A stretch of DNA of 64,000 bases from Fidelibacterota bacterium (GTDB taxonomy: Bacteria > Fidelibacterota > UBA8477 > JABMPR01): NCBI GenBank assembly GCA_016784545.1, contig JADHUM010000002.1, positions 55,735-119,734 of the forward strand, read 5' to 3'. This document shows positions 36,001 to 39,000 of the stretch, one piece after another. Each line of letters begins with the position of its first letter. The first letter of the stretch is position 1. The position numbers were made by a program.

Positions 36001-39000
36001 TCATGCAATCCATAATATTCTGCAGAATGCCATCAAGTACACCGATAAAGGCAGTGTTACTGTTCTGCTTGACCGGGTGGATGGTAACCTCCACCTTACT
36101 TTCACCGATACTGGTATAGGCATTTCTGATGAATATCGCGAACGCATGTTCCAGGTATTTTCACAAGAAAGTGAAGGTCTTGCAAAAGATTACCAGGGTA
36201 TTGGACTTGGCCTCGCCTTGTCCAAGCGCTATCTCGATATGAATCATGTAAAAATTAACGTTACCAGTGAAAAGGGCTTTGGGTCCACCTTTACTTTAAT
36301 TTTTCCCGAACCAACTGATATTTAGCCCCGTCACATCACCCCCACCTCAAGTCGACAACTCACTTAGAAGGTCAGCAAAACCAGCGCTTGTGTTGTTTTA
36401 TCAAGTCACATATCCCCTGGTTTCGTTTAAACTGTAGGTAAGTTTTTGCTTCGTTTAAACTGTAAGGGCTATTCTGGAGGTACGTTGTCCGGTAAATATA
36501 AATTGTCTGATGGAAACAATCTTCAGATCGCTGAAAAGATGCTCCGTGATGTGACTCGTATCTGCGATCTGGTGAGTGCCCCATACTGGCTGGAAGGTGG
36601 CACTCAAATTGGGCTTGTCCGAGAGCAGCGACTCCTACCCTGGGATAATGATATGGACATCTCCATGTATGACACCCATAAATCCAAGCTCTGGTTGATC
36701 ATCCCCATGCTATTGCTTCAAGGATACCGATTAACACTCCAAAACCATCAAACTGATATGGGACCCTTTAAAAGGGGTGAACTGAAAATCATCAAAATCC
36801 GTAATTATACTCGTGGGCTGAAAAAAGGGAAAGTCACGCTGGATGTTTTTATTAAGCGCAAGATTGGGGCTGAATGTTTCTGGGTGGTTGGCGTCAAGAA
36901 ACGGGTGCTCAAGTCCACGCCCTCTCACTTTACCGAGTCACTTTCTACTATTCGTTTTAAGGACAAAGACTATCTCATCCCCTCTGACTATGATGGATAC
37001 CTGACCTACCGCTATGGAGCCTGGAGGGAACCGCAAAAAGAATGGGATTTTCGGGTAGATGATCAAGCTATTGTAGGAAAGGATTATTAGTGAAGGCTAT
37101 TATTATTGCAGCCGGAACAGGCAGACGACTTTACCCAATCACAAAAGATATCCCCAAGAGTCTAGTTGATGTCGGCCAGGGAATTACGCTTCTGGAAACA
37201 CAATTGCACAGCCTTAAGGAGTGTGGTATCAAGGACATCGTCATGATCATTGGATACCGGGCTGATCAGATAGAATCCAAGCTGAAGGAGTATGGCTCGG
37301 ATTTTAATATTGAGATCGTTTACAACCCATTTTTTGAGAGCTCAAATAATCTCGTCTCAGTCTGGATGGCCCGGCATTGTTTTTCTAATGAATTTATTAC
37401 CATTAATGGGGATGATATCTTCGATGTCTCAGTTATCCGCGAGTTGATGAAAAGCGCCTATCCCATCACCATGGTTACGGATATCAAAATCCAGTATGAT
37501 GAAGATGATATGAAGATTATCTCAGCTGATGGTCTCGTAAAGCGGGTGAGTAAAAAGGTTCCTGTGGAAGAAGCCAATGGTGAATCTGTGGGAATAATCA
37601 AGTTCTGTGGATCAGGACCTGGCATTTATAGAGATATGCTAGAGTCCATGGTTCGTGACCCTGAAAACCTGAATGTCTTTTACTTAAAAGCCATTCAGAA
37701 TATTATCGATGCCGGGCATAAAGTTCATTTCAGTCAGTGTGATCCCACTGATTGGGGGGAAATTGATTTTCATCCAGATCTTGAAATGATTCGAGCTTAT
37801 GTGAGTCAGACTAATTTGGTTGAACGGATCCTGGACAAACCCTGATTAATATTCCTGGGAGAGAACCCTCTTAATCATCCGCTTCGGTTACTTCCAGAAT
37901 TTTTAAACCACCAAGTCCGCCAGCTATGAACAAATAGTCTTTTTCGACCTTAACAGCATTGACTGATTCTAAATCATCCAGACGAAACTGACCAATCAAC
38001 TTAAGATCATCAACATCACAATCTCTTGAATCAAATTTATCCCTGGTATAGGCGACATAAACACCTGCCTCACCGTTGGACATATACAAGGTCTTACTGT
38101 CAGTTGAGGCGGCATTGGTAACTGTCACAGATGGATCCAGATCATCTACCACCGGGGGCGCGATCTGTTCGATAACAGAGCCATCTTCCAGACATATAAT
38201 TTGGGTACCACCATCTCCAAGCGCCAAAACAGCTTTTTTTCTATGGATTTCAATGGTTGATTTCGAAAAATCAATTGATGCGCCTTCCAGGTCATAGTCA
38301 TTCAGCATTTCCCCTGAATCATAGTCAAAGGTAACCATGCGGGCTGGAGTTCCGGCGACAACCGCTACATCATCTCCGTCAGTATCAACACCACGAGCGT
38401 CCTCAACGGGATACGAAAAGACAACCTCATCATTGCTAAGCTTAATCACGGTCACATATCCACTATCTGCTCCAGAAGTCACAAAAAGGTGGTTGTCTGT
38501 CACTTCAACATCTGTGGCTGCCCAACTGGGGACATCAAATGTTTCTGTTTCATCCGTCAGAGCATCATTTCTAACACGGACTTTTTCAACAACAGCAGGA
38601 GAATTAAATTCATCACGGTTCGTAGCCATGGCTAGATACAAATTGTTATCCTTAAAGGTTAAGCCATTAACGTCTGAATCAGTAAAAAGCATGGATGATT
38701 TTAACTCTGGATCATCTTCATCCTTAATATCAAAAATATCCACTGCGCCTAGATAGGGCTCACCAATCATGTTATAGGAAACATAGGCTTTATCTCCCTT
38801 AATATAAATATCTGTCGCTTGCAGGACTTGCCCATCAATGGTTGGCGGGTCAACCTCTGCAATTAAGACAAGACTTACTGGATCAACTGCAGGTTTTACC
38901 AGACCTCCCGTTTGTAGCGTTGTATCAATTTCAATGATCTGATTGACGTAAGTGATCCGATTTAGAAGTGTTGACTGATTATTTACCAGAATTATGCGGC

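Follow-up and report, generated by a model that had tools for sequence, protein, structure and literature searches.

Organization of the licD locus

We analysed a stretch of 64,000 nucleotides (nt) from a Fidelibacterota bacterium (GenBank assembly GCA_016784545.1, contig JADHUM010000002.1, positions 55,735 to 119,734 of the forward strand), which is called the window throughout. The subject is a pair of adjacent genes inside this window, a licD-family gene and a LicC-like cytidylyltransferase gene, together with two short direct repeats in front of it. The original prediction, made from the DNA sequence, had proposed that the two genes are coupled by TAGTG, and Pfam confirmed both genes at the positions listed in Table 1.

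Table 1. Features of the licD-cytidylyltransferase locus in window coordinates (aa, amino acids; CDP, cytidine diphosphate; AF2, AlphaFold2).
Feature	Position	Strand	Evidence or remark
PAS histidine kinase, 509 aa, cytoplasmic	34796..36325	+	Pfam PAS, HisKA, HATPase_c
Direct-repeat copy 1, TTCGTTTAAACTGTA	36422..36436	+	Exact match search; overlaps the conserved upstream block
Conserved T-rich block TAAGTTTTTGCTT, consensus yAnnTTTT(T)GCTT	36439..36451	+	Orthologue alignment
Direct-repeat copy 2, exact duplicate of TTCGTTTAAACTGTA	36450..36464	+	Between the conserved block and the ribosome-binding site
Shine-Dalgarno GGAGG (36476-36480) and TTG start codon (36485-36487) of licD	36476..36487	+	Public 201-aa model; orthologue alignment
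LicD-family CDP-alcohol phosphotransferase (predicted), 201 aa	36485..37090	+	Pfam PF04991, catalytic residues, AF2 model
TAGTG stop/start overlap	37088..37092	+	Shared G: licD stop TAG 37088-37090, GTG start 37090-37092
COG1213/LicC-type cytidylyltransferase (predicted), 251 aa	37090..37845	+	Pfam NTP_transferase PF00483, PDB profile, AF2 model

The longest open reading frame (ORF) of licD spans 36446-37090. The gene model starts at TTG 36485, 4 nt past GGAGG, and the public gene model and the orthologues agree on this start. For the upstream comparison we used 10 distinct orthologous regions, window included. TTG was the start codon in 8/10 of them, with ATG in L008 and GTG in L018; GGAG was conserved, and GGAG(G) stood 4-6 nt from the start codon in the orthologues. 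The use of TTG together with the close GGAG(G) suggests that translation initiation of licD may be deliberately weak. The shared G of the TAGTG overlap indicates that licD and the cytidylyltransferase gene are probably translationally coupled. The same 1-nt overlap was present in the close orthologue checked (L005-L007), and the distant relatives showed a gap of 3-12 nt or a 4-nt overlap.

In the close clade (68-88% LicD identity) the gene order was PAS kinase, licD, cytidylyltransferase, a convergent 405-aa lipoprotein-like gene and a YaiO/TPR barrel. The cytidylyltransferase gene directly followed licD in 9/9 close-clade loci with enough downstream sequence. The PAS kinase was syntenic upstream of licD across this clade and was missing beside the 66%-identical orthologue L008. 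We regard the kinase as no more than a neighbour of the licD pair. It had been described in the original prediction as an orphan, and the window ORFs that were scanned with Pfam contained no response-regulator domain. The window contains a second soluble PAS histidine kinase at 13653-14759 on the minus strand.

The gene pair is already annotated in public records and is widespread in free-living lineages. Identical proteins from Candidatus Marinimicrobia metagenome-assembled genomes carry the NCBI names 'LicD family protein' and 'phosphocholine cytidylyltransferase family protein'. Homologues fell into 122 clusters for LicD and 526 for the cytidylyltransferase, nearly all of them environmental and assigned to Marinimicrobia, Cloacimonadota or Delongbacteria. 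The representative search with the cytidylyltransferase gave 642 matches at E ≤ 1e-30, each standing for one 50%-identity cluster. Loci with the pair were also present in Calditrichia and Sulfurovum genomes. The earlier view that such decoration is unusual outside host-associated bacteria is not supported by these mostly environmental clusters.

The LicD protein

The LicD ORF matched the Pfam family LicD PF04991 with 55.8 bits (cut-off 22.6), and this domain was present in all 120 listed LicD homologues except the truncated fragment P0028. Its catalytic motif reads YWLEGGT...PWDNDMDI, followed by a third invariant Asp in LDVF. Residues G39, T40, D54, D56, D58, and D120 were invariant in 19 sequences, down to 34% identity, and by alignment this set is the nucleotidyltransferase-fold signature (hGG[ST], DxD, third carboxylate). 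The original prediction had named a loss of the DxD residues as a ground for refuting it; both DxD and the third Asp were intact. The AF2 model (pLDDT, the predicted local distance difference test score, of 92.2) showed a compact soluble fold with no predicted membrane segment. When this model was used for a structural search, the top 13 PDB matches were all FKRP, the best with E 1.7e-9 and TMq 0.65. The only NCBIfam match of the protein was Mf1 diacylglycerol cholinephosphotransferase, which scored 42.6 bits against a cut-off of 225 and covered the N-terminal part only. Judged by sequence, the licD product of the window is a LicD-type phosphotransferase with a CDP-alcohol as its predicted donor.

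Family and fold of the cytidylyltransferase

LicC was the best match of the cytidylyltransferase in a single-sequence PDB search (66.9 bits, next match 42.8 bits). With the family profile, the matches to LicC (89.7 bits) and PntC (61.5 bits) ran the full length of these proteins. Sugar-1-phosphate enzymes matched the profile mostly in the nucleotide-binding part (positions ~1-120, up to 176), and a weak match to the RmlA-type 3hl3 reached position 199. All NCBIfam matches were far under their cut-offs, the best being 84 bits vs 292. The AF2 model (pLDDT 88) gave template modelling scores (TM-scores) of 0.80 to LicC, 0.79 to the CTP:inositol-1-phosphate cytidylyltransferase (IPCT) of T. maritima, and 0.82 to PntC, and the identity to LicC was ~23%. 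The NTP_transferase features were kept, namely the AAGTGRRL loop, K23, D108, and E224-x-D226.

Because LicC and PntC matched the profile over their full length, the NCBIfam scores were below cut-off, and the best folds were LicC, IPCT, and PntC, the enzyme belongs with the cytidylyltransferases of small phospho-compounds (COG1213) and not with the sugar-1-phosphate enzymes. The LicC-like call of the original prediction, which had named the sugar-1-phosphate enzymes as the alternative grouping, was upheld in this respect: no such grouping was seen, and only LicC and PntC matched over the full length. Within COG1213, the window enzyme is, by its sequence features, a member of its own subfamily, with the signature W92, N106-G-D108, K133..YD.DDMK142, [FWY][YW]L199, and W222-E-x-D226.

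Substrate of the cytidylyltransferase

The pocket comparison covered LicC and PntC, rebuilt from printed alignments, and 130 family representatives. D105 and D192 of LicC, and E104 and E196 of PntC, contact the amine of the substrate (Rice et al. 2019, PMC6697681). These positions align to N106 and L199 of the window enzyme. W136 of LicC (aromatic box, 1JYL numbering) aligns to D140, which lies inside the family motif K..YD.DDMK. N106 was present in 119/130, D140 in 116/130, and L199 in 99/130 representatives.

A profile of the substrate half (residues 98-251) gave only one significant match in the PDB, the T. maritima IPCT 4jd0 (E 1.8e-6), with weak matches to the A. fulgidus IPCTs 2xme and 4mnd. 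LicC and PntC were unmatched by this profile even at E ≤ 10. Two subfamily members that keep the YD.DDM motif are fusions, P0307 with an inositol-monophosphatase-family domain and P0337 with a DIPPS-like CDP-alcohol transferase. In the Cloacimonadota, a CDP-alcohol phosphatidyltransferase of ~300 aa stands divergently beside the cytidylyltransferase in L024 (7720-8631, minus strand), and another of ~300 aa stands beside a second LicD paralogue in L021 (10519-11436, minus strand). The best NCBIfam matches of the Cloacimonadota CDP-alcohol phosphatidyltransferase were inositol-phosphate synthases, at scores under the threshold. For Bacteroidetes, a route via CDP-inositol that uses an NTP-transferase and a CDP-alcohol transferase has been proposed (PMC9246714). 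Further substrates of COG1213 enzymes are glycerol-2-phosphate, phosphoglutamine, and phosphoglycerate (PMC12275187, PMC11324152).

The genes that would supply phosphocholine or 2-aminoethylphosphonate (AEP) were looked for as well. Pfam scans of the larger ORFs of the window, a few of which had no Pfam match, returned no licA, licB or pepM-type gene, in agreement with the original prediction that licA and licB are not adjacent. No licA or licB was found in ~65 related loci, a choline-kinase domain was found in 0/10 of the long or fused family members checked, and neither pepM, for phosphoenolpyruvate (PEP) mutase, nor an AEP transaminase was found in the window or the related loci examined. 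The search for licA, licB, and pepM that had been suggested for the genome, made here in the scanned ORFs and related loci, gave no candidate.

Because of the pocket residues, the similarity of the substrate half, and the lack of licA, licB, and pepM in the window and in the flanks of the relatives, phosphocholine and AEP are disfavoured, and the alcohol is predicted more likely to be a polyol phosphate than either of them. myo-Inositol-1-phosphate would be the best single candidate, and we name it tentatively. Phosphocholine itself and a glycerol phosphate are both unlikely substrates, to the same degree, and other compounds hold the remaining probability. The original idea of a CDP-activated phospho-alcohol that is transferred onto a glycan or lipid follows from the family call and is retained; its choice of phosphocholine or AEP does not agree with N106, L199, and the IPCT-like half.

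The strongest competing explanation is a true Lic-1 phosphocholine decoration, in which the enzyme would be a LicC orthologue that makes CDP-choline, with the kinase and transporter encoded elsewhere. LicC is the best match by sequence, for the single sequence as well as the profile, and by fold; the NCBI family label names phosphocholine, and aromatic residues of the window enzyme align with Y92, Y190, and W191 of LicC. On the other hand, D105, D192, and W136 of LicC are all replaced, the substrate half did not match LicC, and the overall identity to LicC is low. The licA and licB genes are also missing from the window and from the related loci, and no fusion with a choline kinase was seen in the ten long or fused members checked. 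We consider this explanation unlikely.

Repeats and conserved block upstream of licD

The two exact copies of TTCGTTTAAACTGTA are placed 28 nt apart, start to start, and each holds the palindrome GTTTAAAC. They lie 63-49 nt and 35-21 nt upstream of the TTG start, inside an intergenic gap of 159 nt. They form the sole close-range (≤100 nt) exact direct repeat of at least 12 nt in the 64-kb window, and first-order Markov simulations gave 0.02 such close-range 15-mers per window. Chance is excluded as the origin of the pair.

The two copies differed strongly in their conservation. The core of copy 1, TAAACTGTRGG (36428-36438), is followed by GTTTTTGCTT and was found at about -56/-57 from the start codon in 8/10 regions. 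The conserved layout consists of TAAACTGTRGG, 3-4 variable bases, rTTTTTGCTT, the ribosome-binding site, and the start codon. This block was also kept in the 66%-identical orthologue, which has a different upstream gene, and therefore the block belongs to licD. Among the loci fetched by that stage of the analysis, the composite motif occurred upstream of licD only. The palindrome GTTTAAAC was broken in the orthologues, where it reads GCTTAAAC, TGTAAAC or TCTTAAAC. Copy 2 was exact only in the window and in the identical contigs L001-L004, which come from the same species. A degenerate ancestral copy 2 in the orthologues was looked for and rejected, as the best match at the same offset was 10/19, no better than at other offsets. 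Further copies of the 15-mer or of the conserved core were searched for in the window, and only near-matches at chance level were seen.

In the gap upstream of licD, neither a sigma-70-type promoter nor a terminator was detected. A leader RNA or riboswitch was rejected: no Rfam match was obtained at E<0.49, and the minimum-free-energy fold of 36400-36500 (palindromes paired) had a z of -0.76 vs shuffles, no better than these. The -7 promoter element of Bacteroidetes is TAnnTTTG, and the yAnnTTTT(T)GCTT block is a candidate -7-type promoter element of this kind. By its conservation, the block TAAACTGTRGG-N3-4-rTTTTTGCTT is a putative licD promoter that may also contain a site for a regulator. 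The best explanation for copy 2 is a recent, species-specific short-patch duplication into the leader, and together the repeats do not form a conserved paired operator.

The original prediction had described two palindrome-bearing 15-bp repeats spaced 28 bp, which is correct, and had let them overlap the start region, which is not, because the true start is TTG 36485. It had further taken the repeats for a paired operator of a dimeric regulator. The orthologous loci speak largely against this idea, as neither copy 2 nor GTTTAAAC is conserved in them and only the core of copy 1 remains; the proposed search for more sites with the palindrome core gave no further one in the 64-kb window.

The repeats could nevertheless work as a pair of regulator sites, for example for a partner of the PAS kinase, that was newly doubled for tighter control. 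The exact 15-nt duplicate is beyond chance and is fixed in at least 4 independent assemblies, the core of copy 1 keeps a fixed position in the orthologues, and the PAS kinase is syntenic in the close clade. Against this, copy 2 and the palindrome were missing from every orthologue, no other site exists in the 64 kb, a spacing of 28 nt does not correspond to full helical turns, the neighbouring genes include none for a DNA-binding regulator, and the kinase is missing beside the 66% orthologue that keeps the motif. We therefore give such a working pair only a small chance, slightly below that of the phosphocholine decoration.

Context in relatives and likely acceptor

Outside the close clade we counted 54 distinct locus architectures. 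A TagF-like gene was present in 39/54 of these loci and adjoined licD in 32/54, an MsbA-like gene was present in 22/54, and the cytidylyltransferase gene was the immediate neighbour of licD in 15/54, across phyla. The operons of the relatives contain 2-4 TagB/F-type Glyphos_transf genes and a TagD-like CTP_transf gene. In other lineages the order was MsbA-like ABC exporter, DUF6165 (in part of the operons), TagD, TagB/F-like, GT9 heptosyltransferase, TagB/F-like, LicD, and cytidylyltransferase. The best NCBIfam match of the ABC exporter was MsbA_lipidA (445 bits). Some operons add a kinase of 3-deoxy-D-manno-octulosonic acid (Kdo), an LpxL-type acyltransferase, a Wzy_C ligase or DUF3108.

This conserved operon occurs in Cloacimonadota, Calditrichia, and other Marinimicrobia, with or without Kdo kinase, LpxL, DUF6165, and DUF3108. 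Examples are L010 (4500-15620), L122 (2624-10759), and L012 (6113-13388). From its gene content, an operon of this type looks like a teichoic-acid-like decoration of the core of lipopolysaccharide (LPS). In the literature searched there was no description of an MsbA/TagD/TagB/F/GT9/LicD/cytidylyltransferase operon, and nothing specific on the pair in Marinimicrobia or on LPS-core glycerophosphotransferases. The closest precedent that has been worked out comes from Gram-negative capsules, in which the TagB-like CpsA and the LicD-family CpsC extend a Kdo glycolipid with poly(glycerol-3-phosphate) (Litschko et al. 2024, PMC11666461).

Because the pair of the relatives sits in LPS-core operons, the acceptor would most likely be the LPS inner core with its Kdo/heptose region, or a short chain of glycerol phosphates attached to it. 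Where TagD co-occurs, the donor of LicD is likely a compound other than CDP-sn-glycerol-3-phosphate.

A different acceptor would follow if LicD acted like Mf1 of Mycoplasma on diacylglycerol or a glycolipid and so made a membrane-lipid head group. Mf1 is the only NCBIfam match of LicD, the pair of the close clade stands alone without glycan genes, and members of the subfamily are fused to, or lie beside, CDP-alcohol phosphatidyltransferases that make lipids. However, the Mf1 score is far under its 225-bit cut-off, the compact soluble AF2 model has no predicted membrane segment, and most other lineages place licD among LPS-core or TagF-type genes and not among genes of lipid synthesis. A role in head-group synthesis is improbable.

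Proposed pathway

In the proposed mechanism, the cytidylyltransferase would convert cytidine triphosphate (CTP) and a phospho-alcohol X-P to CDP-X and pyrophosphate. The LicD enzyme would then use CDP-X to attach P-X to a hydroxyl group on an envelope glycolipid at the cytoplasmic face, with release of cytidine monophosphate (CMP), and the glycolipid would be modified prior to flipping by an MsbA-type exporter. The two overlapping genes would be a self-contained activate-and-transfer module of a marine Marinimicrobia (SAR406) bacterium. Taken as a whole, this module with an LPS-core acceptor, a probable non-choline polyol phosphate, a promoter at copy 1 and a duplicate as copy 2 is the reading that we favour, with moderate confidence.

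Several results weigh against it. LicC is still the best overall match in sequence and structure, and the aromatic positions Y92, Y190, and W191 of its choline box are kept as W92, F197, and Y198. The inositol-related NCBIfam matches were all under the curated cut-offs. No inositol-1-phosphate synthase (MIPS) was found in the window or the fetched flanks, and the proposed CDP-inositol clusters of Bacteroidetes usually carry this enzyme (Heaver et al. 2022, PMC9246714). By Pfam and tblastn, the window has no TagF, TagD, GT9 or MsbA-type LPS cluster, and the evidence on the acceptor is an extrapolation from relatives at 41-66% identity. For the putative promoter, the other upstream regions of the window yielded no convincing general promoter motif.

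Phosphonate tailoring, in which a PntC would make CMP-2-aminoethylphosphonate for attachment to a glycan by LicD, is very improbable: PntC is the second-best full-length PDB match with the top TM-score, and LicD-like genes accompany PntC in known clusters (PMC6697681), but E104 and E196 are changed to N106 and L199, the C-terminal-half profile did not find PntC, and no PEP mutase or AEP transaminase is encoded in the window or related loci.

A wider version of the favoured reading is possible, though we hold it to be doubtful. It says that the large COG1213 subfamily with W92, N106, K..YD.DDMK, and L199 makes CDP-inositol or another non-choline CDP-polyol, and that LicD adds this polyol phosphate to the LPS inner core, which would complete a widespread pathway of teichoic-acid-like type (MsbA, TagD, two to four TagB/F, GT9, LicD, cytidylyltransferase) in free-living bacteria of the FCB group, including SAR406.

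If the polyol-phosphate reading is true, abundant uncultured bacteria of marine waters and anaerobic digesters would carry teichoic-acid-like phosphodiesters on the LPS core. This would alter the charge of the outer surface, metal binding, and the recognition by phages and grazers. The COG1213 enzymes would also gain a seventh class of substrate, or CDP-inositol a use not known before. The gene pair was correctly recognised in the original prediction and was already annotated, and the value of the present analysis lies mostly in a correction of the label: 'phosphocholine cytidylyltransferase family', which is attached to hundreds of environmental proteins, is probably misleading on the substrate. 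The case of the repeats shows that what looks like a designed operator pair can have arisen by recent duplication inside one species.

Other features of the window

Nothing else in the 64-kb window was related to glycans or to substrate supply. Candidate homologues of TagF, TagD, MsbA, and Kdo kinase were searched for in the window by tblastn and rejected, as all that matched was a Sua5 and some unrelated ABC ATPases. The genes at 13.6-22 kb were considered as a glycan cluster and ruled out, since they form a Phe/Tyr catabolic cluster. This cluster (14878-22913, minus strand) contains a flavin reductase, a fumarylacetoacetate hydrolase, an aminotransferase, a homogentisate-dioxygenase-like protein, a glyoxalase/HPPD-like protein, and a biopterin-dependent hydroxylase, which is unusually long (589 aa); a TetR regulator lies at 22326-22913.

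At 3220-5466 the gene of a carbamoyltransferase (602 aa) stands before that of a small SxtJ-family protein, with no other toxin genes. Saxitoxin-type clusters are known to contain such a pair. Two copies of a 27-nt element, TTTCGTCATCCTGAGGCYCTCGAAGGA, lie on the minus strand, at 60299-60325 and 63444-63470, and none is expected by chance. Each copy is located ~40-70 nt upstream of a minus-strand gene (DUF58/VWA at 59361-60257; PD40/DPPIV-like at 60395-63409), and a short AGTTAGG-type tandem adjoins the first copy.

Comparison with known systems

The pair resembles LicC and LicD of the Lic-1 systems of Streptococcus pneumoniae and Haemophilus influenzae in its protein families and in the reaction scheme, in which CTP and X-P give CDP-X and LicD transfers P-X. 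In contrast to Lic-1, the window pair is without licA and licB, the choline contacts are replaced, and the substrate half is different. The hosts are free-living, and the context in the relatives is the LPS core with TagF-type genes.

CpsA and CpsC of Actinobacillus pleuropneumoniae, the transition transferases of Gram-negative group 2 capsules, use a Kdo glycolipid acceptor, a CDP-activated polyol phosphate, and an ABC exporter (Litschko et al. 2024, PMC11666461). The combination of a PF04464 TagB-like enzyme, a PF04991 enzyme, and an ABC exporter is also seen in relatives of the window pair. CDP-glycerol is supplied in the capsule system by a TagD-type enzyme, whereas in the present loci LicD is coupled to a COG1213 enzyme, in many cases in addition to TagD. 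The relatives' context is made up of GT9, Kdo kinase, and LpxL instead of kps capsule genes, and the window is without TagB/F partners.

The IPCT proteins (T. maritima 4JD0; A. fulgidus IPCT/DIPPS) have the same fold and are the sole solved proteins that match the substrate half. As in IPCT and CDP-inositol systems, fusions with IMPase-like or DIPPS-like domains and neighbouring CDP-alcohol transferases were seen, and the phylogenetic neighbourhood is that of the FCB group (PMC9246714). The differences are that the partner is LicD and not a CDP-alcohol phosphatidyltransferase, that no inositol-1-phosphate synthase is nearby, and that the scores are sub-threshold. PntC (AEP), CpgD (phosphoglycerate; PMC12275187), Cj1416 (phosphoglutamine), and Gtp2 (glycerol-2-phosphate) belong to the same COG1213 superfamily and likewise feed envelope decorations. 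The pocket signature is unlike that of PntC, and the likeness to CpgD, Cj1416, and Gtp2 is one of description and not of sequence.

Among the LicD-family proteins, the eukaryotic ribitol-phosphate transferases FKRP and FKTN are the closest structural comparison: no LicD-family fold other than that of FKRP has been solved, and the LicD model matches FKRP best. The DxD motifs align well, with PWDNDMDI in LicD and PWDYDVDL in FKRP. Unlike a full counterpart of FKRP or FKTN, the window protein matches in the catalytic domain only, at 16-18% identity, and both donor and acceptor differ.

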